A DNA stretch of 64,000 nucleotides from a virus (IMGVR_UViG_3300031555_004710:1-64000); one strand, 5' to 3'; positions 2,294 to 17,562 are shown, counted from the first letter of the stretch. Notes: generated from the letters alone by a model not told the origin. Numbers and translations: made by a program.

Positions 2294-3034
2294 TTATTTT
2301 TTACCTTTGTCATTTTTGAAATGTCTTTCCAGCATCTCAATACAAATATCATATACTCTCTTCAAAGTAATATATCTTTGAAGTAATTCATCATATTCTA
2401 AAGATGTTAGATTTTGAGTTAATGTCTTATAAATATAATCCTTACAGTTTCTAAGATGATTTAAAACGACATTTAATATATTTATCGTATTCTGGTCATT
2501 TATATTTGTAAGAGAATTTACAAGAATTTCAATATCTCCAGATATTATAGTATATAATTGGATGAGATTATCTCTAACTCTATTTTTCTGAGTGAATAGT
2601 AAATCCACATTATCAGTATTATTACCACCATCTGGATTATCGTCTTCTTCACCAGCACCAGGATCTTCTTCCATATTATCATCATTTCCAGAATCTTCAG
2701 GGTTGTCTGTTGAAGGGTCACCGCCATTTTCTCCACTACCAAAGATATCATCAACCTTTTCGAGGTCTTCTTCATCATTAGTAGGAAGATTTTCTGCTCC
2801 TTCGGCTTTATCCTTTTCTGGATTTCCAGAAGGACCATCAGCAGGTTTCTGTGTACCAAAGATGTCATCAACCTTTTCGAGGTCTTCTTCATCTTCTCTT
2901 TTATCTGCATCAGTTTGAGTACTCGGAGTTCCTCCTATAGCACTTTTAACTTCATTTGCAGTCTGAGATGTGATGTCATCTGCTTCCATTGCAATTGTCA
3001 TAGATTCTAAAAAATCTAAAAATGAATTTGCCAT
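2294..3034 (-). CDS. Acidic head/scaffold-like virion protein
   Basis: Very acidic, duplicated DEEDLEKVDDIFG, N-terminal FLESMTIAME|A protease-type site, co-transcribed after 3052-5169. Confidence 0.45.
   Translation of the reverse strand: MANSFLDFLESMTIAMEADDITSQTANEVKSAIGGTPSTQTDADKREDEEDLEKVDDIFGTQKPADGPSGNPEKDKAEGAENLPTNDEEDLEKVDDIFGSGENGGDPSTDNPEDSGNDDNMEEDPGAGEEDDNPDGGNNTDNVDLLFTQKNRVRDNLIQLYTIISGDIEILVNSLTNINDQNTINILNVVLNHLRNCKDYIYKTLTQNLTSLEYDELLQRYITLKRVYDICIEMLERHFKNDKGKK
2737..2893. repeat. 40-bp direct repeat (2737-2776 and 2854-2893, 1 mismatch) encoding DEEDLEKVDDIFG
   Basis: taccaaagat[a/g]tcatcaaccttttcgaggtcttcttcatc occurs twice. Confidence 0.9.
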
Positions 3035-3051: not shown

Positions 3052-5169
3052 TTATACATTATCTCGATATTCGTTATTTACATATTTCTTTGCAATACGC
3101 ATATCTTCTTTAGTTGCTTTAAGATCATATTTTATTTTATCTCTTGCACGTTCTAATTCAGTCTTAGTTCGCATAAGAGCATATTTAGCTCTTCTATTTC
3201 CATCACCACGAGCATCTTCAATTTTTTCATCCATCATTTTTAATTCAGTTTCAATCTGAAGTAAGATTTCACTTTTCTGCTTTTTGGTTCTTCTCTTACT
3301 AATAGTATGAGATACCAAAAGATATATAAAACCAGCAGTTTTAGAATAATTAAAGATTGCTCCGGTAATTAAAATCTTTTTAAGAAGTCCTAATGGAGTA
3401 AATTTTTTACCCTCAATTATTTCTTCAGTTTTATCTTGAGAGAAAGCTCTTTTAGCAGCACTAAGCATTTTTGATAATTGAGAATCTACTTTAGCTTCGC
3501 TATCTTTATATTTTTTATAGGCATTGTAAATTTTACGTTCACCATCAGACTGAACTTTACTAGCCTTCTTATAACCTTTAGTAGATTGCTTAGCTTCTAT
3601 CTCTGGTCCATCATAATTTTTCTCATATTCAGGATCCTCTTCAATTCTAGTTGGTCCTCTATTACCATTATTAGAAGAGCTTTTTCTATCATCACGAGGT
3701 TCTTCATCTTCATACTCAGAGTCGTCTTCAGTAAATTCTTCATTCTCCTCTTCATAATCTGGTTCTTCCTCTTTCTTAATAGGTTTTTTCTTAACACGTT
3801 TCTTTTTAACCTTTGGAGGTTCTTCTTCATATTCTTCCTCATAATTAGATTCCTCATCTTCGGATTTATCATCACCAAGATTAGTTCTACTATTAACAGC
3901 ATATACTCTATTACGCCCTCTTGCTTCAGTTGCAACATCCATCTCCTGTTCAAGGGTACCAATAAGTTTTTCAGCAAGCTCTAATTCAGGATTTAAATAC
4001 TTATGAAGATATGTAGCATATACTCTATCTGGGATAGATGAATGTTTAGTATTTTCTGTGAATTCTACCCAAAGTTTAAATGCTTCATCATTATGTAGAT
4101 AACTTTTAATCCCTTCAAAATAGTCTCCTCTTAAAAATACATCTTCATAATCCCCAGATTCAGTATATGAACCAACTATACTATTGATTATAGTCTGAAC
4201 TGTTTCAGGGATTGCAAAACTACTAAAGAAAAGAGTTTTAGCATCTCTTAAAAGCATCGAAATTTCTTTCGTACTTAATTCGTTTTCAGTATAATTAAAA
4301 TGAATGGTATTTAAAAATCCTAACATGAATTGTCCAACTACTGGGTTAGCTACATTTACATATCCAGTAGAAGCTAATCTAGTTTTTAATTCATGAAAAC
4401 CCATTATAATATCATTAAAGAACATTAAATATACATCCGATGAAGTTTTATTTTTTGATACTTTACTATATCTATTTGCAAGTTCTCTCATTTTTTCATC
4501 AATTAAATTTCCCCATTCGGTAACATTTAATTGATTTAATAATGTAGAATGATCGATATTGTGACATATATTTATAAATAATGCCTGAAATGGTCTTATA
4601 ATCTCATTAATCTTATGATAGTCTTTATCCTTTGATAAATCAATTTCATATTTATTTTTAAAATATGAATCTAATTCTTCCATTGTCTTACCTTGGATTA
4701 TCAAATCTATTGATACTCTTATTTGCTCCATAAGTACAGGATTATTAATATCTTCATCGGTTCTAGCTAAATACCACTGACATAAAGTATTTATTAATAC
4801 ATCTTTCTTTTCAGAAGGTAATTTAGATATGAAGGTCTTGTCATCTGCACATATAGCAGCTACCATAAGTGAAAAATCATCAAGTTCGAAAACAAGGTTA
4901 TCGAAATTGGATACTAATTTATTACAAAAATATCTAAGCAGATTTAATGAAGATTCACAATGTTCGGATATTGTAGAAGCCCAAACTAAAGATCTTACAA
5001 ATCTACTATAAGATGTAGAAAATCCTAATGAATCAACTGCATTTTGTAAGTCTGGATATACATGATTTATAACATTTTTTCTTACACATAAATCAACTAC
5101 ATCTGCAAGTGAATCATAGTTCTCACAAGTTGTAATTCTATTAATATATTGCTCAAGAAGTTGAGCCAT
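3052..5169 (-). CDS. Large putative inner-head virion protein
   Basis: Late motif 5212-5223; internal VATE|A site followed by an acidic/basic low-complexity linker and a helical C-terminal domain. Confidence 0.5.
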   Translation of the reverse strand: MAQLLEQYINRITTCENYDSLADVVDLCVRKNVINHVYPDLQNAVDSLGFSTSYSRFVRSLVWASTISEHCESSLNLLRYFCNKLVSNFDNLVFELDDFSLMVAAICADDKTFISKLPSEKKDVLINTLCQWYLARTDEDINNPVLMEQIRVSIDLIIQGKTMEELDSYFKNKYEIDLSKDKDYHKINEIIRPFQALFINICHNIDHSTLLNQLNVTEWGNLIDEKMRELANRYSKVSKNKTSSDVYLMFFNDIIMGFHELKTRLASTGYVNVANPVVGQFMLGFLNTIHFNYTENELSTKEISMLLRDAKTLFFSSFAIPETVQTIINSIVGSYTESGDYEDVFLRGDYFEGIKSYLHNDEAFKLWVEFTENTKHSSIPDRVYATYLHKYLNPELELAEKLIGTLEQEMDVATEARGRNRVYAVNSRTNLGDDKSEDEESNYEEEYEEEPPKVKKKRVKKKPIKKEEEPDYEEENEEFTEDDSEYEDEEPRDDRKSSSNNGNRGPTRIEEDPEYEKNYDGPEIEAKQSTKGYKKASKVQSDGERKIYNAYKKYKDSEAKVDSQLSKMLSAAKRAFSQDKTEEIIEGKKFTPLGLLKKILITGAIFNYSKTAGFIYLLVSHTISKRRTKKQKSEILLQIETELKMMDEKIEDARGDGNRRAKYALMRTKTELERARDKIKYDLKATKEDMRIAKKYVNNEYRDNV

Positions 5170-5265
5170 AATGGTCACCACCTTTTCTAGTGATTAGTTA
5201 TGTTTACGCATTAGGAGATTGTTAAAATCATATAAAATAAAGAAGAGTGCATAGCACTCTTCTTT

Positions 5266-5919
5266 TTATTTATTGCTAAATTGTGATGCAGATAAATAAC
5301 CATATTTTCTAGCCTCAGAAATAAATTCTTCTGATGGGCAAAGATATGCACTTATTATACAATCATATTTATCTCCATCTTCATCAATCTTTTTAATACA
5401 CTGCAACTTTTTTTCTGATATAAAAGTTTTTATAGATTTATAAAGACTATTAAACTTTGGATAAAATTCCTCAGAGAATATATCAATCCATTCATCGTCT
5501 TCATCTCTATTATAAGCTTCAGATTCATCCTTTTTCATATATTCCCAGAAGTCAGTGTATGCTAAGCATGTATAATTTTCATCTAAAAATTTACCATATG
5601 ATTTATTTAAGAAATAGGAAACCCCATCTTCATTCTTATTTAAACCATAGATTCCACTTATTTTTAAATTTCTTATCTGAGTATTAATAAAATTATTTAG
5701 TAAATTTAATTCCTTTTTTCTTAATGTAATTTCTTTACTTATTACATCTGCTGGAATCTTTTCCATTACTTCAGTAAGTAATTTATTATATCCATCATAA
5801 TCAAATGATTTAGATTCCTTTTCTTTTTTCTTCTTTTTGAAAAGTTCTTTTATTTTACTAATCAGACCTTCTTCTGCAATCATATATGATTCTAATATAT
5901 CAGCATATGATTTATTCAT
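5266..5919 (-). CDS. Leader-family putative head/ejected protein
   Basis: N-terminus MNKSYADILESYMIAEEG. Confidence 0.6.
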   Translation of the reverse strand: MNKSYADILESYMIAEEGLISKIKELFKKKKKEKESKSFDYDGYNKLLTEVMEKIPADVISKEITLRKKELNLLNNFINTQIRNLKISGIYGLNKNEDGVSYFLNKSYGKFLDENYTCLAYTDFWEYMKKDESEAYNRDEDDEWIDIFSEEFYPKFNSLYKSIKTFISEKKLQCIKKIDEDGDKYDCIISAYLCPSEEFISEARKYGYLSASQFSNK

Positions 5920-5937
5920 ATTAAATCAACCTCATTT

Positions 5938-6996
5938 CTATTTTTTAGTTGTTACTTTTTTCTTCATATAAGTATTAAATGATTCAGCCATTACTTGATT
6001 ATACGTATATCCTAAGAAATAAACTTTCTTAAGTTTTTTATAATTGCTGCTAGAATCACTAATAACATAACACACTCTTTGATTGTCTACAGGTTTACCG
6101 TGTAAATTAAAAGAGCTAGGATGCTTATAATTAAACTTGAATACTTTTTCTCCATCATCGAGTTTAATTCTTTTCTCAATAGGCTCAACGCTATTATGCA
6201 TGCCCTCCTGAACGCTATAATTATCATAATAATATTTTATATCAAATGTAAAATATTTAACGATTTCCATAGCTTGGTTCATTAAGGACTGCTTATAAAA
6301 TTTTTCACTATTTTCAGCAACTGCTTTATTTGTAAGCTCTTCAACTTTTTCACTTCTTAAAGCTTTTGCAATTTTACGTTTTTCAGCTTCTTCTTTCTTC
6401 TTAATATCTTTAGATTTTTTGATATTTTGAAGAGCTTTACTTTCATTACCATTTAATGGTCTAGTAATTGCAAAATATGTTGGATATTCTCCTCGCTCAA
6501 CCTTAAATCCTCCACCTATATCATTCTTTACAATTTCGGATAAAATAGGTAACATTAATTGAGGAAATCCAGGAGCATCATATCTATCGATATTATTACA
6601 ATGAATATTAATATATAAATTATTCATTGTAACATCTGGTGGATATTCTGAAAAATATACACTACTTAAATATATTTTAAAATCATTAATAGATACATTA
6701 TAGTCAACTTTATCAGTAAAACTTTTAATTTTTTTACTATAGTTTTCTGATGATAAACTTTCAATAAGAATATCATTAAATCTTTTTTGCCAATTTGATT
6801 CATAGAAAAATTCTTCAATTTTATCTTTTAGTGATTTATCAAATCTACCATTAGTATCAAACTGAAATTCAAACATTTCTTTTGGATAACTAATAGGATA
6901 TTTTTTAATAATTGAATTAACATTTAGACTTTCTAATGCTACATCTATCATATAACTTTCCAAAGTTTCAGCATAATCATAATACATATTAATCAT
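5938..6996 (-). CDS. Leader-family putative head/ejected protein
   Basis: N-terminus MYYDYAETLESYMIDVALES. Confidence 0.55.
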   Translation of the reverse strand: MINMYYDYAETLESYMIDVALESLNVNSIIKKYPISYPKEMFEFQFDTNGRFDKSLKDKIEEFFYESNWQKRFNDILIESLSSENYSKKIKSFTDKVDYNVSINDFKIYLSSVYFSEYPPDVTMNNLYINIHCNNIDRYDAPGFPQLMLPILSEIVKNDIGGGFKVERGEYPTYFAITRPLNGNESKALQNIKKSKDIKKKEEAEKRKIAKALRSEKVEELTNKAVAENSEKFYKQSLMNQAMEIVKYFTFDIKYYYDNYSVQEGMHNSVEPIEKRIKLDDGEKVFKFNYKHPSSFNLHGKPVDNQRVCYVISDSSSNYKKLKKVYFLGYTYNQVMAESFNTYMKKKVTTKK

Positions 6997-7086
6997 CTCA
7001 CTTTCATTATTTATAAATACATTATATAAAAGTTCAATATTTTTACCAAAAAAATAAGAGGTGGTATACCTCTTATTTTTTATAAA

Positions 7087-7329
7087 TTAGATTCTAAGGT
7101 CTTCGACTATTTGAAGAAACTTTTCTTCTCCTATCAAATCCTCAATGAAATTTTCAAGTTCTTCAATATAGAACGTTTGTGCTGAAATAACTCCATTCTT
7201 AGCTTTACTTATTTTAGATATATCTCTATATCTACTTATGAGTGTAGCTATTGCTAAATATGATGTTGCTTTAGCTAATTTCTTAGTTTTATTACTAAGT
7301 GAAAGACTTAATTTATTTAATAATACCAT
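7087..7329 (-). CDS. Small early hypothetical protein
   Basis: GGGGAGGTG RBS; early motif 7358-7373; flanking terminator. Confidence 0.6.
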   Translation of the reverse strand: MVLLNKLSLSLSNKTKKLAKATSYLAIATLISRYRDISKISKAKNGVISAQTFYIEELENFIEDLIGEEKFLQIVEDLRI

Positions 7330-7442
7330 TTAATTCACCTCCCCTATTTTATATCATTCACATAAATAATATACCACTGAAATAATTATAAATATACCCA
7401 ACAATTCAAGTAAATAGTATTCATTTTAATTATGAATATTAT

Positions 7443-7454
7443 AACAAATTATTA
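7443..7454 (+). promoter_or_regulatory. Late promoter AACA-N6-TAA (representative of 20 exact copies)
   Basis: Copies at +863, 7443, 12343, 17508, 25198, 26084, 29000, 33083, 37552, 39422, 45409, 47801, 63211 and -5212, 14289, 16182, 17476, 55786, 59405, 63184. Confidence 0.8.
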
Positions 7455-7512
7455 AAAATTATATAAGAATACAAATATGACTTTAAAGTAAAATAAGGAG
7501 GTACACCATATT

Positions 7513-9267
7513 ATGGCTATGTACGATAATCACGTAAAAGCTCCTAACGTTGTTGGTAACATTAGCATGTCTGACAGCGATTATGGGTTTAAAAATGAGA
7601 TCAAAGCCGTGTTTGAAAGTTATACTCAACAGGGTGTTGATCTGATTCATGATCTTCCTAGCATCATTTCTTCTCCGAAGTCTAAACAGGACTTCATTGG
7701 AGCTATCACAGAATCTATGTCAGAGTCTCCGCTTTATCAGAACGCTGCTTGTTCTAAAGCTCCTTTCTATAGCAACTACGCAGATAGAGTTGACCAGCTT
7801 TTATCTAACACTCTTGATAGCATCGCTACTGAGTCTGTTATGACTGGTTATGCTCCTATCGTAGCATACAATCCTTTCTTCTTAAAGAAACAGTGGATTG
7901 ACTGTGTATGGAAAGACGTTCTTATGACAGAAATTCCTAAGACTCCTGTTATCGAATTCGGTTTCGAAAGAAGATATTTAAAAGACATCGAAGGAAACGA
8001 ATATCCGCTTCCTGAAGCTCTTTATGATGATGAACTTGTTAAGACTCTTATGGATGCTGCAACAGGTTTAAACATCAAAGAAGAACCTATCGATATCGCT
8101 ACATGTAAAGATCTTTCTTTAATAGATCCTGCTTACATTCCTGGCGTAATCGCTGGTGATCACACTGTAGAATTAACACCTGGTATCAGCATTTGTTCTG
8201 TACAGATGACTGACAGTGAAGGTGGAGTTCATGATGTTCCTGTAAACATCACAGTTGATATCTCTACTCACAACTTCGTTAAAGGTGCTATCAAATTTGA
8301 TGTACTTGACGAAAATGGTGAAGTTAAAGAAACTCTTACTGATGAAATCATCGGTAAAGTAAACTTTAAAGACGGTAAAGTAACAGTAATGAGCACATCT
8401 GGTGCAGTTACAAAAGTTTGCTTCCGTGGCAAAACTGCTAATAGATACAACCAGAGATCTTTAGACGTTGTAAGACGTGTTGAAAAGATCGAAAAAGTTA
8501 TGCCTGAATCTGGCCCAAGACTTAATGCAGCAGTTACAATCGAAGACGCTGCTGATGCTCTTGCTCTTCAGAATATTGATATCATCGCAGATAATATCAA
8601 CGTAATGGGCGCAACTTTAGCTAACTTTGAAGATGCTGAAATCAAATCTTTCCTTGCTGAATCTTTTGAAGCTCAGAAGAGAGGAAATGCTGCAGGCATC
8701 AAATATAATGAACTTGGCGATAACTCTATGATCGTTGAAGGTAGCTTCAATGCTATGCCTTACGATGGTTACGCTTACACAATTCCTGAATGGATGAAAG
8801 CTTCTAGAGAATACTTTGAAAGAGTAGTTGGAGCTCTTAAACTTAAATTAAGATCTTCTAACGTTATCATCGTTGCAGTTGCTAACCCTAACATTGTAAG
8901 ATTCTTACAGGATGGTATCAACTGGGTATTCTCCGATGACACTCAGATTTCAGGTGTTAAATTATCTTACAACTTCGGTATTTATACATCTGCACAGGAT
9001 AGAGTACACATTCTTACATCTATGAGAATGAGCGAAGCTGAAGGTATCAGATTTGTAGTTATTCCTTTAACTAACGAATTGATTACATTCAAAAACTACA
9101 AGTACAATGTAACAATCGATAGAAACTACAGACATCCTTTATTCTCATTAGTACCAAATATCATGGCTACTCAGAGAACACTTCAAATCGAGATTTTACC
9201 TGTTGCTGGTCAGATGTTAATTGAAGGTAGAGAATTATTCTCACCTGACACTCTTACAAGAGCGTAA
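7513..9267 (+). CDS. Major capsid protein precursor
   Basis: 584 aa; codon usage typical of highly expressed genes (ATC/TTC/AAC/GCT); IATE|S propeptide site near residue 107; late promoter; strong terminator; near the prohead protease. Confidence 0.8.
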   Translation: MAMYDNHVKAPNVVGNISMSDSDYGFKNEIKAVFESYTQQGVDLIHDLPSIISSPKSKQDFIGAITESMSESPLYQNAACSKAPFYSNYADRVDQLLSNTLDSIATESVMTGYAPIVAYNPFFLKKQWIDCVWKDVLMTEIPKTPVIEFGFERRYLKDIEGNEYPLPEALYDDELVKTLMDAATGLNIKEEPIDIATCKDLSLIDPAYIPGVIAGDHTVELTPGISICSVQMTDSEGGVHDVPVNITVDISTHNFVKGAIKFDVLDENGEVKETLTDEIIGKVNFKDGKVTVMSTSGAVTKVCFRGKTANRYNQRSLDVVRRVEKIEKVMPESGPRLNAAVTIEDAADALALQNIDIIADNINVMGATLANFEDAEIKSFLAESFEAQKRGNAAGIKYNELGDNSMIVEGSFNAMPYDGYAYTIPEWMKASREYFERVVGALKLKLRSSNVIIVAVANPNIVRFLQDGINWVFSDDTQISGVKLSYNFGIYTSAQDRVHILTSMRMSEAEGIRFVVIPLTNELITFKNYKYNVTIDRNYRHPLFSLVPNIMATQRTLQIEILPVAGQMLIEGRELFSPDTLTRA

Positions 9268-9283
9268 GTAAAATTTAAATAAA

Positions 9284-9316
9284 AAATAAGAGATAGCAAT
9301 ACGCTATCTCTTATTT
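9284..9316 (+). terminator. Intrinsic terminator after the capsid gene
   Basis: aaataagagatagc-aatac-gctatctcttattt. Confidence 0.8.
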
Positions 9317-9370
9317 AATTCTTTATACAATTTATTAATACTATAAAAAACGAAATGAGGTTGATTTAAT

Positions 9371-9952
9371 ATGAATAAAAGTTATGCAGATACTTTAGAA
9401 TCATACTTAATCGATCCTGTAGAAGAAGGATTTCGGAACATCGATAAGGAATCTACTAATACAATAGTTAATCTTATAATGAAAATAATGAATAGTATTG
9501 AATACGGCTGTTTTGATAAAAATGGAAAAGAATTAGATATTAAAGATATTTGGTATAGCTATGTTCAATCTCCTCAAGATACATTAAAACATAAAAAAGG
9601 AATGTGCCTAGATCAAGTTGAATTAGAAAAATTTTTATTTGATAAAAAATCCATTAAATATAAAACATTTTATGTTGAATATACTGATGAAGATGGTGAC
9701 CATCCTTCACACGTATTTCTAACTTTCAAAGATAATAAAAAATATTATTGGTTTGAACATTCGTGGAATTCTTGTAGAGGGATTAAAAAATATGACTCTT
9801 TAAAAGAGTTATTAAATGATGTGGCAGTAAAACATTGTAAAGAATATATTAAAACTTGTAGAATTTGTGAGTATAAAGAAAAATTATGTCATAAAGGACA
9901 ACAAGAAATTATTAATTTAATGAGTCATAAACAAAATTTATACAAAAAATAA
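9371..9952 (+). CDS. Leader-family protein with a transglutaminase/papain-like Cys-His-Glu domain
   Basis: Leader MNKSYADTLESYLIDPVEEG; QSPQDTL...GMCLDQ...SHVFL...YWFEHSW. Confidence 0.65.
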   Translation: MNKSYADTLESYLIDPVEEGFRNIDKESTNTIVNLIMKIMNSIEYGCFDKNGKELDIKDIWYSYVQSPQDTLKHKKGMCLDQVELEKFLFDKKSIKYKTFYVEYTDEDGDHPSHVFLTFKDNKKYYWFEHSWNSCRGIKKYDSLKELLNDVAVKHCKEYIKTCRICEYKEKLCHKGQQEIINLMSHKQNLYKK

Positions 9953-9970
9953 TAAGGAGGTTGATTATAA

Positions 9971-10741
9971 ATGAATAAATCATATGCTGATGTATTAGAA
10001 TCATATCTAATTGAACCTGCTGAAGAAGGTATTGGTGGATTTCTAATTGGTACAGCTGGATTTATAGCTGGAGTTACACTTCTTGGAAAAATAACTGATG
10101 CTAGAAGCAGAAGTAAGTTAAAGAAAGAAATAAGAGCTAATGCCGGAAAGCCTGCTCAATATAAAAACATGTATTCAATACTTAGGAAATACTCTAAAGA
10201 TATTACTGGTGTATTAGAACCAGTTAACGGAAAATTATATCTTAAACTATGGACTGAATTAGAAGTTATTTCTAGAGAATGCGATAATCTAAGAGATGCT
10301 TTCTCAAGTATATCAGAACCGACAGATCCTAGTTCAATATCTAAATATAAACAGATAAATTCAAAGATTAAGAATATGCAATCTAAAGTAAATGTAATTA
10401 TTGAGAAAATTAAAAATATTGATTTATCTGAAGTATCATCAAATACAGTACCCTTACCATCATCTAATATAGAGAAAATAGAAGATATAGTGTGGGATGT
10501 ATTTAATGATTTATGGCGTGGTGGACATGATGGATGGTCATTAATTATGACAGATGATTACTATTTCAGTGATGCTGGAGGAGTTATTAAATCTGGAGCT
10601 GTACCAGAAGCTGATGAATGTGTCGACAACTTTGATAATCTCGTTAGAAGTATTGAAGATGATGACGACCCAGATTCTTATATTAGAAAATATATTTCAA
10701 AGTGTAAATTTGCAATAAATCCAAATTCTAACTTAAAATAA
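9971..10741 (+). CDS. Leader-family protein with a hydrophobic segment directly after the cleavage site
   Basis: MNKSYADVLESYLIEPAEE|GIGGFLIGTAGFIAGVTLLG. Confidence 0.6.
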   Translation: MNKSYADVLESYLIEPAEEGIGGFLIGTAGFIAGVTLLGKITDARSRSKLKKEIRANAGKPAQYKNMYSILRKYSKDITGVLEPVNGKLYLKLWTELEVISRECDNLRDAFSSISEPTDPSSISKYKQINSKIKNMQSKVNVIIEKIKNIDLSEVSSNTVPLPSSNIEKIEDIVWDVFNDLWRGGHDGWSLIMTDDYYFSDAGGVIKSGAVPEADECVDNFDNLVRSIEDDDDPDSYIRKYISKCKFAINPNSNLK

Positions 10742-10859
10742 ATAATAGATAGAACCTAAATAGGTTCTATCTATATTAACCCGTATCAATCGTTAATTGA
10801 ACTCATATATTATTGATGCGATACACTGATAATATTTACATATATGAAAGGAGATTGAT

Positions 10860-11330
10860 ATGAAATTATACGTTTTAGAAAATCCTGATGGAGGATATTA
10901 TGACACTGCTTTTATAAGTAAAGCAATAGCTGAGAAAATTAGAGAGGTTATAGCTACTTATACTGAATGGGATTTTGAAATTTCTGAATTAGAATTTCCA
11001 GCTATTGGAAAGTATTTGTACTACGTTAAAGGATACTATGGATTTAAATATGACCCTCTAAAATCTCCACCTCTAGAAGACGTTATATCATTAAGCACTG
11101 TATATCCTTCTAAGTATTTAGCTAAAAAAGATAAGATATGGACTGATGCATTATCTAAAGTTAAAGAAACACCAGAGTATTATATAATAAAAGATAGACT
11201 AATTGCAGTTAATGTTGGAACACTTGAAAACGTTCCATTTGCATTTGGAAAATACGAGGAAGGAAACTTTAATATTAAAATTGAAAAGATTAGAATAGAT
11301 ACAAAATCAAAAATAATTAAGAAGAAATAG
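10860..11330 (+). CDS. Early hypothetical protein
   Basis: GAAAGGAG RBS; early motif 10806-10821. Confidence 0.6.
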   Translation: MKLYVLENPDGGYYDTAFISKAIAEKIREVIATYTEWDFEISELEFPAIGKYLYYVKGYYGFKYDPLKSPPLEDVISLSTVYPSKYLAKKDKIWTDALSKVKETPEYYIIKDRLIAVNVGTLENVPFAFGKYEEGNFNIKIEKIRIDTKSKIIKKK

Positions 11331-11447
11331 AATACAATAAAGGTATGTAGATAATGCATACCTTTATTTTTTTTGTATATTTAACATTACTTTCAACAAA
11401 CTCCTTAAATACAATGAATAATTATTAGACGAAAGGAGTTATATCAT

Positions 11448-12290
11448 ATGCCTAATATGTATAATGATAATTATCTTGATTATTATGTAGTAATGGAGCA
11501 AACTTCTCCTGAAAATAATAAAATAGAAATGATTGCAGATGGTACAAAGAATGGTCTTAATTTCTTAAGATTCTCAACATGTTTACAATCATTCAGAGGA
11601 CGTAATAGAAATCGTAGATTGTGGAAAGCTGACCAAGTAAAAGCAATGGTTAATGATAGACCTGTTCAAGAATTACTTGAAAAAGGTTCATTCGTTGGTG
11701 AAGCTGGGCATCCTGTTCCTATGGACGGTAAAGTTACAATTGAAAGAATTCTTACAATAGATCCTCTTAAATGCTCTCATAGAATAATATCATTAAGCTG
11801 GCCTACACCTGATGAAATTCATGGTGTCGTAGAAACACTTGATGAAGGTCCTGGTAGCCCTGGTGATAGATTTATGAGAAATATAATGCAAGGTATAATA
11901 CCTGCATTCTCATTGAGATCACTTGTACCTCAGAGAAAAAATGCCGATGGTTCAACAGACGTTATAGGCCCAGGTAGATGTGTATGTTATGATAGAGTAT
12001 ATTTACCATCTCACCAGGAAGCATATATGAACGTTGAAATTCCTGTAAAGCAAATAGTTACAAAACCTAAATTCGAAACTGTAATGGAATCATATTGTAA
12101 CTTTGTAACTTCTCATTCTGATAAAGTAAGAAGAATTGTAGATGAATTAGAGCCTGCAATGGAATCTGCTTGTTTCGATGAGAAATCACAGATGATGTCA
12201 ATTCCTACAGCAGAAGGTAGAATTTTTGTAGCACCTGAAATGAAATACAGAAAAGAAATTCAGGGTATAATGAACGATTTTAATTTTTAA
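11448..12290 (+). CDS. Prohead (head maturation) serine protease, T4 gp21/phiKZ gp175-like
   Basis: NRNRR, GEAGHP, SHRI, PAFSLRS, YDRV..PSH motifs; C-terminal PAME|S self-cleavage site. Confidence 0.85.
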   Translation: MPNMYNDNYLDYYVVMEQTSPENNKIEMIADGTKNGLNFLRFSTCLQSFRGRNRNRRLWKADQVKAMVNDRPVQELLEKGSFVGEAGHPVPMDGKVTIERILTIDPLKCSHRIISLSWPTPDEIHGVVETLDEGPGSPGDRFMRNIMQGIIPAFSLRSLVPQRKNADGSTDVIGPGRCVCYDRVYLPSHQEAYMNVEIPVKQIVTKPKFETVMESYCNFVTSHSDKVRRIVDELEPAMESACFDEKSQMMSIPTAEGRIFVAPEMKYRKEIQGIMNDFNF

Positions 12291-12392
12291 TTTAAATAAG
12301 ATACTGAGAATATTCTCAGTATCTTCATTTTTGTATCCTAAAAACACCTCATTAAATATCTACAAAAATAATAGAAATGGAGTTGATTTAAT

Positions 12393-13490
12393 ATGAATAA
12401 ATCATATGCTGATGTATTAGAAAGTTATATTATAGAGCCCGCAATTGAATCAGTTGGAATCGTACCTTTAAATCAATCTAGTAAACTAATTCCATCATCA
12501 ATAAATAACATGAAAGACTTAGCTAAATTAGAGCTCATTGCAGATGGTTATAGTAGAAAAATACATGATAGTGTTAAACGTGATGGTGAAATTTTTGTTA
12601 AAAAAATAAAGAAGCAATTAGTTCCAATTACAGAATATGATAATAGTAAATTGGAAAGTAGTGTGCTTACAGAAATACAAAAAATATTAAAATTATATAT
12701 TAGTAGTCAAGAATTTAAAAAATATTGCAGTATTTATACTAATCTAGTAAAATTTAACTATACTAAATCATCACCAGGTTCATATAAATCTAATAATGAA
12801 GAGAAATATTATGGTACTATCAATGCTACAGTATTTGATACAAATAAACAATGGGTATTTGAAGAAAAATGGGAAAAACAATATAAAGATTATATTAATA
12901 AGATAAATAAATTACCAGAAGATGATATTAAAAAATTATATAAAGATAATGAAGGAAATCCATATTGTTTTGGAACTATTGTGAGAGGTTTAAATCCGTA
13001 TAGTTTCAGAATTTTTAACGATATTGAAAGATCAATTGATGATGTTATAAAAAGGTGTTTAAAAATTATTTTCTCTAAAAGTGATGTTAAAATTGATATG
13101 TCTCAAGGTGGTCTTACGGTGCATTATGGAAGTTATAGAGACGGATTATCAAAAGATGCTAAAGAGAAAATGATGAATTTAATTATTAGTGATTTTAAAT
13201 CATCCATGAAAAATTATAATATATCCGAATCTAATAAAACTTATAAAATATCAAAAGATCTTTTTAATGAAGATTACCCACAGATTTCATATGTGTATTA
13301 CGATGAAGATTATAGTGGGGATGGTAGTGATTATGATAATGGATTATCTAAATCCGATATTGATGAAAATAAAAAATTTGAAAAGATTTTATATAAAGTA
13401 TTAAAAGAGTTAGAAACTAAATATCCTAAAGTAATTTTTGATAATGATGGATATCGTGGACATGGAAGTATATGCATTTCAATAAAATAA
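12393..13490 (+). CDS. Leader-family putative head/ejected protein
   Basis: MNKSYADVLESYIIEPAIES; late motif 12343-12354. Confidence 0.6.
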   Translation: MNKSYADVLESYIIEPAIESVGIVPLNQSSKLIPSSINNMKDLAKLELIADGYSRKIHDSVKRDGEIFVKKIKKQLVPITEYDNSKLESSVLTEIQKILKLYISSQEFKKYCSIYTNLVKFNYTKSSPGSYKSNNEEKYYGTINATVFDTNKQWVFEEKWEKQYKDYINKINKLPEDDIKKLYKDNEGNPYCFGTIVRGLNPYSFRIFNDIERSIDDVIKRCLKIIFSKSDVKIDMSQGGLTVHYGSYRDGLSKDAKEKMMNLIISDFKSSMKNYNISESNKTYKISKDLFNEDYPQISYVYYDEDYSGDGSDYDNGLSKSDIDENKKFEKILYKVLKELETKYPKVIFDNDGYRGHGSICISIK

Positions 13491-13537
13491 AAGTTTAAAA
13501 GATAGAACCCACTGGGTTCTATCTTTTATTTATTCAA

Positions 13538-14248
13538 TCAAGTATATATTAAATCAAAATGTATCCAGCCTTTACCTGATTCATCATTCTCTGTAAGATA
13601 ATGCATATATCTATGAGAGACATACATTATCAATACATCAAGTATAGCATTTGTTCCATATCTCCAGTAAAATGAACGTTTACAACACTCGAAAGCACAG
13701 AAGTAGTTTTCATCTATATATTGACCTATTTTAAATTGACTTTTAACCCATTTATTAGTCATTGTATCTGGCGCATAATTTTCTGCCATATCATAAAATT
13801 TTTCATTTCTTTCTTCTTTAGGACAATTATTATATTTTCGACAATATTCATCTATTCCATCATTTACTTCTTTAGTAGCTAAAATTTTTGGCAAAGCCAT
13901 TTTAAGATCTTTACTAACTAAAGCAGCTATACTACTATTTAAAATTTTTTCATCTTTATCTGGAAGAGGATTCAAATTTAACCCAGATTCTTCTAAAGCT
14001 TTTTTACGATTAAATTGTAAATAAATTCTACTCTTTTCAGTAGCTTCTTCTTTTTCTTTTTTACGTTGTAATTCGGCTTTTCTAGCTTTTTCTTTATCAG
14101 CTTTTCTTTTATCTATTGCAGCATACTTATGAGGATTTTTCTTCCTATCCCATTTTTCTAATTTATTTATACCAGACTTTATTTTATCAACAAAGCCTTC
14201 TTCTGCTATCATATATGATTCCAATACATCAGCATATGATTTATTCAT
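13538..14248 (-). CDS. Leader-family putative head/ejected protein
   Basis: MNKSYADVLESYMIAEEG; late motif 14289-14300. Confidence 0.6.
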   Translation of the reverse strand: MNKSYADVLESYMIAEEGFVDKIKSGINKLEKWDRKKNPHKYAAIDKRKADKEKARKAELQRKKEKEEATEKSRIYLQFNRKKALEESGLNLNPLPDKDEKILNSSIAALVSKDLKMALPKILATKEVNDGIDEYCRKYNNCPKEERNEKFYDMAENYAPDTMTNKWVKSQFKIGQYIDENYFCAFECCKRSFYWRYGTNAILDVLIMYVSHRYMHYLTENDESGKGWIHFDLIYT

Positions 14249-14369
14249 TATAAATCAACCTCATTTCTATTTTTTTTTTGTAGATATTTAATGAGGTGTT
14301 TTTTCTACATAAACTATGGACAAATTACATAAAGCTTATTGTAATTAAAATATAAGGATGTGATTTACA

Positions 14370-15419
14370 TTGTTGACAAAATATGAAAATCCTAGTAATA
14401 ATTATGCGGACATATTAGAAAGTTATCTCATTCCCGCAGAAGAGGGATTCTTATTTACTCAAATTACAGAGGAAAATATTAATAAATTAGGAGAAAAACG
14501 TACTTTAATAGTATTTACTACCGATGACTCTTTAAACTTTGGTGGTATTAATCCAAAGAAATATATGAATAAGTATCATTTCTCAAAAGTAATAGATTTC
14601 CCATTATTTAAATATTTATTATTTAGAATTGAGATTACTGATAAATGCCCACATATAGACTCCGATTTAAAAAATCTTTTAGATGACCCAAAAAATGTTT
14701 CAGTATCCGATGATGCTAAAATGGGTGATGTTGTATATGACATACTTACAACATGTGACAAATACTCAAAACTTAAAAATACTTTAGTAGTTGCACATTT
14801 ATCGGATGTAATGAGTTTTAGCTATAAATGTATGAGAGAGTATCCTATCATTATAACACAGGTATCAATGGTTAAATCTACAATGAATAGACTTGCAGGA
14901 AATTCAACTATGAATATAAAACAGATAAGAAACATGTATAGAAACTTTGAAGTATTTGATAAAAATATTCCAAAATCTTTATATATTAAAAATATGAAAT
15001 TTGATTTATTTCATATTTCTCCGAACCCAAATATTAAGGAGCTTACTCCAAGAATAACTGATAAGCCATTAGATTTTGAGAATGTAATTATTAAAAGAAT
15101 TTCTACAGCACCATCAGTTGATGCATGTTTTAGAGCAATAGGACTTAATGGTATTGGTAGAGAAAAAGATAAGAAGCGTACATATTATGTATATAGAATT
15201 GTAGTTGATAAAAATACAAGAATAGTAAAACCTACAACGAATATGGTTCCAGATCAATCATATACAAATGAATATTGGATATTAGATACAGTACCGGTTG
15301 AAATGATAGGATCAATAATAGTATCTATAGATAAAAATAATAATTTTATTTTTGATACTAGTAATATGCCGGAAGACCCATTAATTACGACTAAACATAA
15401 ATATAGATCTAAAAAATAA
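14370..15419 (+). CDS. Leader-family protein with a C-terminal ADP-ribosyltransferase-like domain
   Basis: NYADILESYLIPAEEG; C-terminal FHIS..LTPR..RISTAPS..YVY..VPD..TNEYW pattern resembles an ART fold. Confidence 0.45.
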   Translation: MLTKYENPSNNYADILESYLIPAEEGFLFTQITEENINKLGEKRTLIVFTTDDSLNFGGINPKKYMNKYHFSKVIDFPLFKYLLFRIEITDKCPHIDSDLKNLLDDPKNVSVSDDAKMGDVVYDILTTCDKYSKLKNTLVVAHLSDVMSFSYKCMREYPIIITQVSMVKSTMNRLAGNSTMNIKQIRNMYRNFEVFDKNIPKSLYIKNMKFDLFHISPNPNIKELTPRITDKPLDFENVIIKRISTAPSVDACFRAIGLNGIGREKDKKRTYYVYRIVVDKNTRIVKPTTNMVPDQSYTNEYWILDTVPVEMIGSIIVSIDKNNNFIFDTSNMPEDPLITTKHKYRSKK

Positions 15420-15450
15420 AGAGATACCAAATGGTATCTCTTTATTAATT

Positions 15451-16143
15451 TTAAGAGTATAATACTTCCTGTACAGTGATATGCACATCTTTACAGTATG
15501 CATATAATTCTTTTTCAAGATAATTATTTGAATGATAATTTTTCAAAGTATGTCTAAATACTTTCTTGAGAGTAGATTTAGATGCGTGCTCGTTTATATA
15601 TGTGTGTGCAAGAAGAATTGTAATATCTCTATATATTCTCTGAAATTTATTTAATGAATCAATAAGTTTCTTTTTAAAAGCATCATCCATCTCAACTATT
15701 TCTCCATCAAATTGACGATTACCTCTATTTGCAGCATGATTATAATCTAACAAAGTCGGAAGACATTTACGAAGACCTTCTGCAAGATTTGTAAGAACTT
15801 CATTATTCTTTGTAGCAATAGCTTCTCTAAACTTGGGACCATTAGATTTTACATACTGCTCAGCAGTTAAAAGTTCACTAGTAACTTTACTTAAAAATGA
15901 TAATCCTTTTTCCTTAAATTTCTTAGTAGTTTTTGAATGGGATTCTATAAACACTTCTGCCCATTTAGTCCCAATTACATCCAATTTAATTCCTTTATAA
16001 TCTACAGTTTCAACAACATTTGTACCATAAGTATTACTAATTGAAGTTTTAGGATTTTTATCATCCATAAAGAAACCTTCCGTTGCAATATCCGTAGAAT
16101 TGCAGTGATCTGCAAATGGAATATAATATTGATCAAGATTCAT
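15451..16143 (-). CDS. Divergent leader-family protein
   Basis: Same promoter/RBS DNA cassette as 13538-14248; N-terminus ends in DIATE|G. Confidence 0.5.
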   Translation of the reverse strand: MNLDQYYIPFADHCNSTDIATEGFFMDDKNPKTSISNTYGTNVVETVDYKGIKLDVIGTKWAEVFIESHSKTTKKFKEKGLSFLSKVTSELLTAEQYVKSNGPKFREAIATKNNEVLTNLAEGLRKCLPTLLDYNHAANRGNRQFDGEIVEMDDAFKKKLIDSLNKFQRIYRDITILLAHTYINEHASKSTLKKVFRHTLKNYHSNNYLEKELYAYCKDVHITVQEVLYS

Positions 16144-16251
16144 ATTAAATCAACCTCATTTCGTTTTTTTTTGTAAGTATTTAATGAGGTGTTTTATGAT
16201 ATAAAGGTAATAATAGTAAGTAGTCGAAATTGACTACTTACTATATTTATA

Positions 16252-17427
16252 TTATTTAAGATAGGTTGCAGATGAGTAACCCGTTATTCCTCTATATGTA
16301 ACTTTGTACCATCCAGATTTTAAATCTGATACAGGTACTTTAGTACCTTTAGGAATAGTTGCTAAAGTTCTTCCAAGGATACTTCTATAACTACGAATAC
16401 GTAATGCAGCCGTTGTAGTTTTTGTCATTGTAGTAGGAGCTGATGAAATATTTGAAGATGTAGAATTTATCTTTATATAAGAAGCACTAACCCATCCAGC
16501 AGAAATATTATTTGTTTTTATATAATACCAACTACCAGAAGAATTAGAACCTAAAATTGTAACAACTTCACCTTTCTTTACTTGCCCTATTACAGTATAC
16601 GCTTCATTAGTACCATCACCAATCCTAACATTAAGTGAACTTGCAGTCACAGTTCCCGATTTTGTAGGGGAATACGTGATATCGGGTGCTTTAATAGTCG
16701 TCTGTTTAATTTCTTTAGGACCATATACCATGAAAGCTGTACCTATTGGCCTATGATAATTACTTTGTAATCTATTCACAGTTTTTCCATTTAAATACAA
16801 TTCACTACTTCCACCGCCATCCATATTAACAGCTATCTTACATCCAAGTGCAGTCATTATATCTGACATATGTACAGTTGTTAATCCTGAAGAACCAGTA
16901 CCTCTACCATTTGTTACAACCATTACAATAGTACCGTCATACTTCTGACCAATCATAGTACGAGGATTTCTTGTATACGGGTGACCAAACATTCTGGTCA
17001 ATTCAGCTTTACTATATGTATAATCAACTTTACCATCAACTATTAATGTCCAACCAATACCAATAGCAAAGAAAGCATTACCTTGATAATATGCTAATCT
17101 TTCCTGTGTAGGATTATGTTCAATTGTCATTGTATAATCTTTCCATAAAATTAAAGTTGGATATCCTGGCATTGAAGGAGTATAATATAAACCCTCATCT
17201 ACAAATGTTGAATATGTATCTCCACTCTTACCATTCATATCAAAGAATGAAGCATTCATCTTTGCGATAACTTTTTCATTCTCTTTAGGCTGTCCAGCAA
17301 TATTAGGAATAGTTTCAAGTTTTCCACGTACACCAAGAGTAACGTCCAATCTATATTCCTTAGGATTGAACTCTAGAATATGACAAACTGTAGAATAGTA
17401 GTTTTTAGTATAGTATTTATAACTCAT
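16252..17427 (-). CDS. Phosphodiester glycosidase (NAGPA-like) domain with two SH3b domains
   Basis: NASFF, RNPRTMIG, NMDGGGS; LNVR..GWVSASY and LRIR..GYSSATY SH3b repeats. Confidence 0.8.
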   Translation of the reverse strand: MSYKYYTKNYYSTVCHILEFNPKEYRLDVTLGVRGKLETIPNIAGQPKENEKVIAKMNASFFDMNGKSGDTYSTFVDEGLYYTPSMPGYPTLILWKDYTMTIEHNPTQERLAYYQGNAFFAIGIGWTLIVDGKVDYTYSKAELTRMFGHPYTRNPRTMIGQKYDGTIVMVVTNGRGTGSSGLTTVHMSDIMTALGCKIAVNMDGGGSSELYLNGKTVNRLQSNYHRPIGTAFMVYGPKEIKQTTIKAPDITYSPTKSGTVTASSLNVRIGDGTNEAYTVIGQVKKGEVVTILGSNSSGSWYYIKTNNISAGWVSASYIKINSTSSNISSAPTTMTKTTTAALRIRSYRSILGRTLATIPKGTKVPVSDLKSGWYKVTYRGITGYSSATYLK

Positions 17428-17562
17428 ATTAAAATCTCCTTTCATTATAATATTTTTTCTACATTTGCTAATAATTACTAAAATGTTTTTATGCTGGAAT
17501 ATTCAAAAACAGCCCTTTAATACTTTGAACAAACATTTTTGTATTGTGAGGTGAAGATATAA

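Follow-up and report, generated by a model that had tools for sequence, protein, structure and literature searches.

The first 64 kb of the virus record IMGVR_UViG_3300031555_004710 (the window, 64,000 nucleotides of a 236,671-bp IMG/VR record with 29.7% GC and a CheckV completeness of 94%) raise the question of why proteins of dissimilar sequence should begin with one and the same short peptide. The source phage, which is uncultivated and, to judge from its genes, a distant relative of Bacillus phage AR9, carries this leader on eight genes that flank those for the major capsid protein (MCP) and the prohead maturation protease. The original prediction had described it as an address tag, which loads interchangeable cargos into the head and is clipped off at maturation, the cargos being injected with the DNA as an arsenal of effectors. 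The leader is a separately constrained module carried by unrelated bodies, and it probably works as a two-part propeptide for loading and then clipping, similar to the capsid targeting sequence (CTS) of phage T4.

The eight open reading frames (ORFs) and their N-terminal leaders are present exactly as first described; they are designated here by the position and strand of their start, as 5919(-), 6996(-), 9371(+), 9971(+), 12393(+), 14248(-), 14370(+), and the divergent 16143(-). A hidden Markov model (HMM) trained on the seven clear copies and run over the whole 236.7-kb genome recovered these seven together with four genes outside the window, i.e., 165790 and 213443/213464 on the plus strand, and 226565/226559 and 236491/236485 on the minus strand, with E-values from 2e-6 to 7e-15 and the next match at E~1. 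Diverged relatives found on the metagenomic contigs L003, L005, and L031 have the same leader on several genes; further copies with variable bodies, which had been predicted, were found in this way both in the genome and in its relatives. The 5-residue words common to at least three ORF N-termini of the genome are almost exclusively leader words. The leader is carried by at least 12 late genes, or 13 with the divergent 16143, representing about 11 body families, among them two phiKZ_IP-like proteins and several orphans.

The leader consensus is M-x-x-[SN]-Y-A-[DE]-x-L-E-S-Y-[LIM]-I, followed by a linker of 0-3 residues and by [AV]-x-E|[GSA], where the bar indicates the predicted cut. The copies are 17-22 residues long and the terminal motif is present in all of them, which agrees with the earlier proposal that the leader ends in a cleavage site of the phiKZ/SPN3US type. 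Among 17 leader copies, taken from the source phage and from two relatives, all six Ser codons of both families (TCA, TCG, TCT, TCC, AGT, and AGC) occur at the invariant Ser, and the Leu is written TTA, CTT, or TTG; codon differences are 464 synonymous versus 211 non-synonymous, the latter occurring at three positions only. Since the Ser and Leu codons vary and the differences are mostly synonymous, selection acts on the leader peptide. A scan of IMG/VR with a degenerate DNA pattern for the leader returned the record itself only.

Behind this common N-terminus, the proteins encoded in the window are very different. The 5919 gene (5266-5919, minus strand, 217 aa) has the leader MNKSYADILESYMIAEE|G at 5869-5919 (HMM E 6e-12), and its body, family B, consists of a Lys-rich helix and a domain of no assigned family; the protein has no match in Pfam or PHROG, while its L003 ortholog is 38% identical and has the same leader. 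The 6996 gene (5938-6996, minus strand, 352 aa; leader ...MYYDYAETLESYMIDVALE|S, HMM E 2e-11) and the 12393 gene (12393-13490, plus strand, 365 aa; leader MNKSYADVLESYIIEPAIE|S, also detected by the HMM) have orphan bodies, with no Pfam or PHROG family match and no usable match in an ESM Atlas search; the 12393 cassette extends from 12343 to 13490 and includes the promoter-like AACACCTCATTA at 12343-12354 and a conserved 5′ untranslated region (5′UTR) with its ribosome-binding site (RBS). In 9371 (9371-9952, plus strand, 193 aa; HMM E 7e-15) the leader MNKSYADTLESYLIDPVEE|G precedes a transglutaminase-like (papain-fold) domain, which matches Pfam DUF553 (PF04473) over residues 26-128 with 26.8 bits against a cutoff of 20.5, and in which G-M-C-L-D and S-H-V-F motifs, containing Cys and His, can be read. 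In 9971 (9971-10741, plus strand, 256 aa) the leader MNKSYADVLESYLIEPAEE|G is directly followed by a hydrophobic helix resembling a transmembrane (TM) segment (residues 21-39, with a hydropathy maximum of 1.82 at residue 21); the orthologs, 68%, 52%, and 46% identical, all have the leader, and tblastn against GenBank phages gave no match for this protein.

The 14248 cassette (13538-14300, minus strand) comprises a 236-aa gene of family A (13538-14248), with the leader MNKSYADVLESYMIAEE|G recovered by the HMM, and a promoter/UTR module at 14249-14300. In the family A alignment, 14 of the 20 invariant columns lie inside the 17-residue leader, with 25-47% identity between the bodies; an AF2 model of the family (pLDDT 73) shows long helices and a small alpha/beta domain, with no structural neighbour in PDB or Atlas. 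The 14370 gene (14370-15419, plus strand, 349 aa; PHROG 5043) starts with ...NYADILESYLIPAEE|G, followed by an alpha/beta domain (~42-197) and an ART-like domain (~198-335). The divergent cassette 15451-16193 (minus strand) contains a 230-aa gene (15451-16143) with the leader MNLDQYYIPFADHCNSTDIATE|G and a promoter/UTR module at 16144-16193. The leader HMM missed 16143; its upstream region has the identical AACACCTCATTAAATA...GAAATGAGGTTGATTTAATATGAAT module, with promoter and 5′UTR, and the same first two codons, while the L031 ortholog (27% identical) has the leader ...EALENMMIP...DAQE|GFIFDDKNP, and because of these shared features 16143 was counted as a member with a longer linker.

The origin of the leader is suggested by the comparison with phiKZ-type internal head proteins. 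The 226559 protein matches the Pfam profile PF12699 (phiKZ_IP) with 31.9 bits (cutoff 27) over residues 5-68, which comprise leader, cut site, and first helix, and the 236485 protein reaches 18 bits on the same region of the profile; PHROG internal head protein families match as well. None of the remaining leader proteins matched PF12699 at E<0.1. BLASTP (E 3e-9) pairs LESYIIYDIAEE|GFGEAIKK with LQAYAPHDLSQVALE|GFGEGVKN, residues 80-97 of gp184 from Burkholderia phage SURPRISE13, and the extreme N-terminus of gp184, MSANRYADDLELDLQAYAHD, resembles the MASNYADVLESYIIYD of the source phage. Because both gp184 regions match, the leader looks like a phiKZ-type propeptide cut down to its N-terminal tip and its cleavage-site end; these alignments indicate that it is homologous to the latter. 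In gp184, itself a phiKZ_IP protein, the motif DLQAYA(P)HD at residues ~13-20 is repeated at 78-86, just before the A-L-E|G site, which suggests an internal duplication within the long phiKZ-type propeptides. In SPN3US, the protease gp245 cuts after A-x-E, and mature gp53 was found by mass spectrometry to start (E)|GWKETLKDLFER (PMC10052503); this start resembles E|GLISKIKELFKK and E|GFGEAIKKAGK of the source phage. PF12699 proteins reach copy numbers from tens to thousands in each virion, and the majority are injected (bioRxiv 10.64898/2026.04.21.720040).

The enzyme presumed to remove the leader is encoded among the leader genes, at 11448-12290 (plus strand), and was assigned to the T4 gp21/phiKZ gp175 family of prohead maturation proteases by Pfam, PHROG, tblastn, and structure matches. 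Its Pfam scores are slightly below the cutoffs (S77, 24.7 bits with a cutoff of 27; S80, 21.7 bits with a cutoff of 23.4), while it matches the PHROG head maturation protease with E 2e-13, annotated proteases of AR9, PBS1, and Staphylococcus jumbo phages in tblastn with E down to 2e-17, and the solved T4 gp21 structure 5jbl with E 0.0024. Scanning IMG/VR with the protease retrieved only the record itself.

In the proposed mechanism, a short amphipathic helix (Y-A-D/E-x-L-E-S-Y-Phi-I), to which the pattern Y-x-x-Phi-Phi-x-x-Y gives a hydrophobic face, would dock the new protein to the prohead core as this assembles. The gp21/gp175-family protease would then cut at the [AV]-x-E|[GSA] site, which lies beyond a variable linker of 0-3 residues (about 10 in the 16143 type), and cleavage would free the mature protein inside the head; some of the leader proteins would then probably be ejected with the DNA. 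The shortened phiKZ-type propeptide, once reduced to tip and cleavage-site end, would have spread onto new bodies. According to the best reading, the leader is functionally of the CTS type, and by descent it belongs with the propeptides of phiKZ-type internal head proteins. A capsid-loading leader with interchangeable cargos, as originally predicted, is favoured in part: the constrained module, the cut site, the homology to phiKZ_IP propeptides, the gp21-family protease nearby, and the additional copies all speak for it. The purely effector nature of the arsenal does not stand, as internal head proteins of the phiKZ_IP type belong to the set, and an acidic scaffold-like protein may do so too.

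Several points count against loading followed by clipping. Docking, cleavage, packaging, and injection are steps that we infer for an uncultivated phage known here from its genes alone, and a 246-aa acidic protein, a 709-aa charged protein (both described below), the interior of the MCP, and the protease are only candidates as docking partners. The whole genome of AR9, the closest characterised relative, has neither a YADxLESY leader nor an N-terminal word common to many ORFs. In L031, a 481-aa protein (8545-9990, plus strand) has leader and cut site in an internal position, ...SYSDVLESYLIPVEE|GFIEN at ~350-370. Distant homologs of the 14370 protein have a leader of only ~7 residues (MTPAQE|G), in which the cut site is kept and the helical core is gone. 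Finally, the bodies may share a very remote homology, as the profiles are thin, with 1-5 sequences for most families.

The internal copy of the L031 protein suggests that the leader behaves as a general module for prohead incorporation and processing. Another stretch of the same protein, at ~213-241, resembles the leader and ends AIE|A, and the protein may be processed by the head protease as a polyprotein. In AR9 (KU878088), the products of g113 (MNKKYKMICESLLLIEA) and g115 (MLSKYESLLLVEHEE, annotated as a virion protein and containing a TM segment), which flank the protease gene g114, are the only pair sharing an ESLLL[IV]E N-terminus, and they could correspond to the leader in a minimal form of two genes.

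The age of the two halves of the leader can be followed in the 14370 protein, whose body has 264 homologs in a library of 1.8 billion proteins. All 18 full-length homologs inspected start with a short N-terminal peptide ending in [AV]-x-E|[GSA], and in 19 aligned diverged sequences the P1 residue is always Glu, with A or V at P3 and G, S, or A at P1′. The upstream text varies, from MDLEKYLIPAEE|G and MDYPSVLESYLIPAEE|G down to the minimal form mentioned above. The distant homologs that keep only the cut site indicate that the helical core is not universally required for this protein; the processing site is ancient, and the YADxLESY helix a trait of the clade of the source phage. In a more distant relative (L034:361-2825), three adjacent genes start with MDLITLESLFIP (a NUDIX hydrolase), MDLNKYLIDDD, and MDLEKYLIPAEE|G, respectively; the trio shares an MDLxxxL N-terminal dialect, with a clear A-x-E cut site only in the third gene.

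This deep conservation of the cut site speaks more than anything else for the alternative that survives best, according to which the leader is a propeptide for processing only: the N-terminus would supply a protease site, e.g., to keep enzymes inactive or tethered until maturation, while entry into the head would depend on the bodies or on co-assembly. The module inside the L031 481-aa protein fits a processing module as well as an address tag. Moreover, V-L-E|S within the leader core (YAD-VLE|S-Y; e.g., 9971-10000 and 12393-12422) itself fits [AV]-x-E|[GSA] and could be a second cut site splitting the propeptide, as reported for SPN3US gp53 and gp54; the long phiKZ and SPN3US propeptides are cut at several sites (PMC10052503). 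However, a gp21-family site needs only ~3-4 residues, and yet the 10-residue helical core is invariant across 12 genes and several diverged relatives; besides, the equivalent N-terminal part of the T4 leader is a targeting determinant (PMC9026906). Processing without targeting is hence regarded as rather unlikely, though ahead of the other alternatives.

The second alternative concerns the bodies, which might be ordinary paralogues, i.e., one phiKZ_IP-like family in which the N-terminus was kept by descent and the rest drifted beyond recognition. The original prediction stated that similarity stops abruptly after the A-x-E. This holds for most pairs and fails for two of them: BLASTP within the genome, performed without the leaders, identified 14248 and 165790 as paralogs with 39% identity, and 226559 and 236485 as having ~40 post-leader residues in common. 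Paralogy is further suggested by the phiKZ_IP matches of two members, by the similar Lys-rich amphipathic helix with which several mature parts begin (GLISKIKELFKK, GFVDKIKSGINK, and GFGEAIKKAGK), by the highly diverged families of head-protein paralogs known in phiKZ-like phages (PMC5694885), and by the thinness of the body profiles. On the other hand, hhalign comparison of 11 body families, to which orthologs from the relatives had been added, gave less than 5% probability for all 55 pairs, and the bodies are of different domain types, including a DUF553 papain-like enzyme, a two-domain protein with alpha/beta and ART-like parts, a TM protein, and a helical orphan. The C-terminal domain of 14370 is found elsewhere, in many other phages, either alone or inside giant proteins and without this leader, which indicates fusion of the leader onto pre-existing domains rather than drift. 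The unrelatedness of the bodies, as claimed at the outset, is therefore borne out by BLASTP, hhalign, and domain content, and a single drifted family is very unlikely.

The ART-like assignment of the 14370 C-terminal domain comes from structure prediction. The AF2 model has a pLDDT of 86, with the leader as the sole low-confidence part; residues 12-19 (YADILESY) form a short helix detached from the body, predicted with low confidence. Foldseek best matches were cholera/LT A1, pertussis S1, PltA, and Arr (probability 0.9-0.97, E 7e-3 to 0.2), and VIA-align of residues 198-335 gave Z scores of 5-7 to KptA, pertussis S1, scabin, ParT, Arr, and NatT, which are middling values according to the caveat of the tool. 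Residues H215, S217, R243, Y275, and E301 are invariant in the sequence alignment of the 19 homologs and are candidates for a catalytic triad of the H-Y-E or R-S-E type. On the structure matches the domain can be called ART-like, which is not proof. Structure prediction of the cargos had been suggested as a check; it gave these middling scores for 14370 and no structural neighbour for the 14248 family. In another relative, L036, the gene of the 14370 type (10001-10963) lies among tail sheath and tube genes and away from the capsid gene, which suggests that cargo cassettes move around the genome; no further leader genes were seen in the 21 kb around this ortholog.

Comparison of the source phage with L031 gives an idea of the rate at which the cargos change. 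The MCPs are 82% identical, while the shared cargos are 37% (14370 type) and 27% (16143 type) identical, and two L031 leader genes, as well as the 481-aa protein, match the source genome through the leader alone. This pattern points to a fast turnover of cargos behind a fixed leader, as described also for the T-even internal proteins (PMC3012670, PMC9026906).

The regulatory regions of the leader genes resemble those of late genes. The genes 12393, 14248, 16143, and 165790 have the same upstream module, consisting of AACACCTCATTAAATA..., an A-run, and then GAAATGAGGTTGATTT-AAT-ATG; AACACCTCATTA fits the late-promoter consensus experimentally defined in AR9, AACA-(6N)-TA/G (PMC5312081). Of 19 upstream regions examined, 10 contain the motif AACA-N6-TA, where 0.05 would be expected per region; the MCP and other head or tail genes are among those with the motif. 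Other leader genes lie directly 3′ of late genes: 9371 after the MCP, 9971 after 9371, and 5919 after 6996. The leader genes are thus likely expressed late, as structural genes would be. The 226559 and 236485 genes are located near the opposite end of the linear record, beside replication genes, and they would adjoin the head module of the window only if the record were circularly permuted.

In view of these data, it is hardly credible that the N-terminus is a signal unrelated to the capsid (for membrane, secretion, an intracellular phage compartment, or translation initiation and regulation), since the conservation of RBS and 5′UTR also at the DNA level and the TM helix of one member, which would fit it, are opposed by a codon pattern showing that the peptide and not the RNA is selected, by the homology of the leader to the propeptide and cut site of a capsid-internal protein, by the clustering of the genes around MCP and protease behind late promoters, and by an acidic and amphipathic peptide which reads unlike Sec or Tat signals.

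Other features of the cassettes were noted in the DNA. Terminator-like hairpins, visible in the sequence, precede several of them. Within the module, the RBS-containing AATGAGGT(T)G and CACCTCATT, which overlaps the promoter-like AACA-N6-TA, are reverse complements of each other; the complementary stretches are at 12347-12355 with 12377-12386, at 14289-14297 with 14258-14267 (minus strand), and in the 16182-16190 region, and in the variant cassette of 226559 both complementary sides are changed (AAATCATT ... GGATGAT). Pairing of CACCTCATT with AATGAGGT as an mRNA hairpin was considered and not adopted, as it lies partly upstream of the predicted transcription start. Just 5′ of the 236485 gene, a run of 12 C, conspicuous at a GC content of about 30%, lies at ~236,500-236,530, the place taken in other cassettes by the promoter module; it could be an assembly artefact of the contig end or a slippage-prone tract.

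Among the head genes proper, the MCP is encoded at 7513-9267 (plus strand; PHROG major head protein, E 4e-35) and has AACA-N6-TA at -70. It is 26% identical to the MCP of AR9/PBS1 and matches Staphylococcus, Listeria, and Yersinia jumbo phages more weakly; in the N-terminal alignment, its predicted maturation site ...DSIATE|SVMTGY pairs with ...AILQE|SVVAGI of AR9. The MCP propeptide (SNYADRVDQLL...SIATE|S) and the N-terminus of the protease (YNDNYLDYYVVME|Q) were both considered as leader-like and dropped, as the leader HMM gives no support.

Two co-oriented genes on the minus strand of the head module, at 2294-3034 and 3052-5181, encode candidate core or scaffold proteins. The first product (246 aa, pI 4.2), which is scaffold-like and a possible divergent member of the leader set, is very acidic and contains EEDLEKVDDIFG repeated in tandem; its C-terminal domain is helical. 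It starts MANSFLDFLESMTIAME|ADD; nine of its 18 N-terminal residues are identical to the leader, and its L031 ortholog is 57% identical with the same N-terminus. A leader HMM built without this protein scores it only at E~15, and its membership is possible and not secure. The second product (709 aa) has a long charged stretch rich in Glu and Lys and a C-terminal region that is hydrophobic and coiled, and it is 27% identical to its L031 counterpart. Adjoining the leader cluster on the other side, the gene at 16252-17445 (minus strand) encodes a 397-aa protein with NAGPA (phosphodiester glycosidase) and SH3_3 domains, which is probably a cell-wall-binding lytic or virion-associated enzyme.

If the loading-and-clipping reading is extended, the helical core could be a portable, lineage-specific code for docking onto the prohead core, derived from a collapsed phiKZ-type propeptide; the T4 CTS (10 residues) and the phiKZ propeptides (100 residues) would be the two ends of one ancestral gp21-family load-and-clip system, whose short form would allow enzymes of the injected arsenal (ART-like, transglutaminase-like, and membrane-active) to be swapped fast in evolution. 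This wider idea is doubtful and is put forward only tentatively; if true, a tag of ~20 residues could load any protein into such jumbo capsids. In any case, the leader is a concrete and testable candidate for a common packaging signal in giant phages of the phiKZ/AR9 group, whose heads contain tens of different internal and ejected proteins, and provides a link to the T4 CTS paradigm. The leader set points to fast-evolving candidates for host-takeover proteins (ART-like, transglutaminase-like, and membrane-inserting), and the leader itself might serve laboratory phage work as a simple tag with which foreign proteins are loaded into jumbo-phage capsids.

The closest functional parallel is found in the T-even phages, whose diverse internal proteins share only the capsid targeting sequence (PMC3012670, PMC9026906). 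In T4, the CTS MKTYQEFIAE is present on IPI, IPII, IPIII, and Alt and is removed by gp21 (Mullaney and Black 1996, as reviewed in PMC9026906, PMC3012670, PMC8442874); targeting maps to Y4 and F7, and processing to I8 and E10 (PMC9026906). Both systems have a short N-terminal propeptide shared by diverse proteins, in which a targeting part (presumed in the source phage) is followed by an x-E cut site, a protease of the same family, and cargos that vary strongly from one related phage to the next while the leader is conserved. The outline M-[K/N]-x-(S)-Y-x-[D/E]-Phi-Phi ... I-A-E| is also common to both, and the Y-x-x-Phi spacing of T4 Y4/F7 recurs in the leader helix of the source phage; only the outline is visible, as 10 residues allow no homology statistics. 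The T4 CTS differs in its length (10 residues versus 17-22), in the cut site (L/I-x-E versus A/V-x-E|G/S/A), in the number of genes (about 4 versus 12-13), and in belonging to a T4-like instead of an AR9/phiKZ-related lineage, the latter system being known from genes only.

In descent, the nearest systems are the phiKZ-type PF12699 proteins (phiKZ gp92-97, SPN3US gp53/gp54, and Goslar gp53-58), which follow the same A-x-E| rule and have the same Gly-led amphipathic mature N-terminus. However, the known members form paralog families with propeptides of ~95-137 residues, whereas here ~20 residues are found on at least nine body families outside PF12699. Short propeptides occur in SPN3US on the head proteins gp45 (20 aa) and gp225 (24 aa), and gp53 and gp54 are identical over 15 N-terminal residues, which according to the authors recalls the T4 CTS (PMC5694885, PMC10052503). 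Removal of a short N-terminal propeptide at A-x-E in a giant phage is thus seen in gp45 and gp225 and predicted for the system described here; the common N-terminus of gp53 and gp54 is instead confined to two paralogs, and no leader on many families was described there. The SPN3US ejection protein gp47 (PMC5694885) resembles 9971 in layout only, the TM helix following the cut site immediately in both; the two sequences show no similarity. Another route of capsid delivery is represented by head-packaged ARTs, Nudix enzymes, and polyvalent proteins fused to MuF or portal domains (PMC9503650), which likewise include enzymes resembling host-modifying effectors, ART-fold proteins among them; in these, packaging relies on fusion to a structural domain, and not on a short removable leader. 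In the giant-phage literature, propeptides are described as long and heterogeneous, and a common signal for packaging is not reported (PMC5694885, PMC10052503, Goslar preprint). The leader of the source phage is an extension of the established T-even idea and not a new principle: the concept is known from those phages, and what is new is a leader of ~20 residues extending over about 11 body families in an AR9-related lineage.

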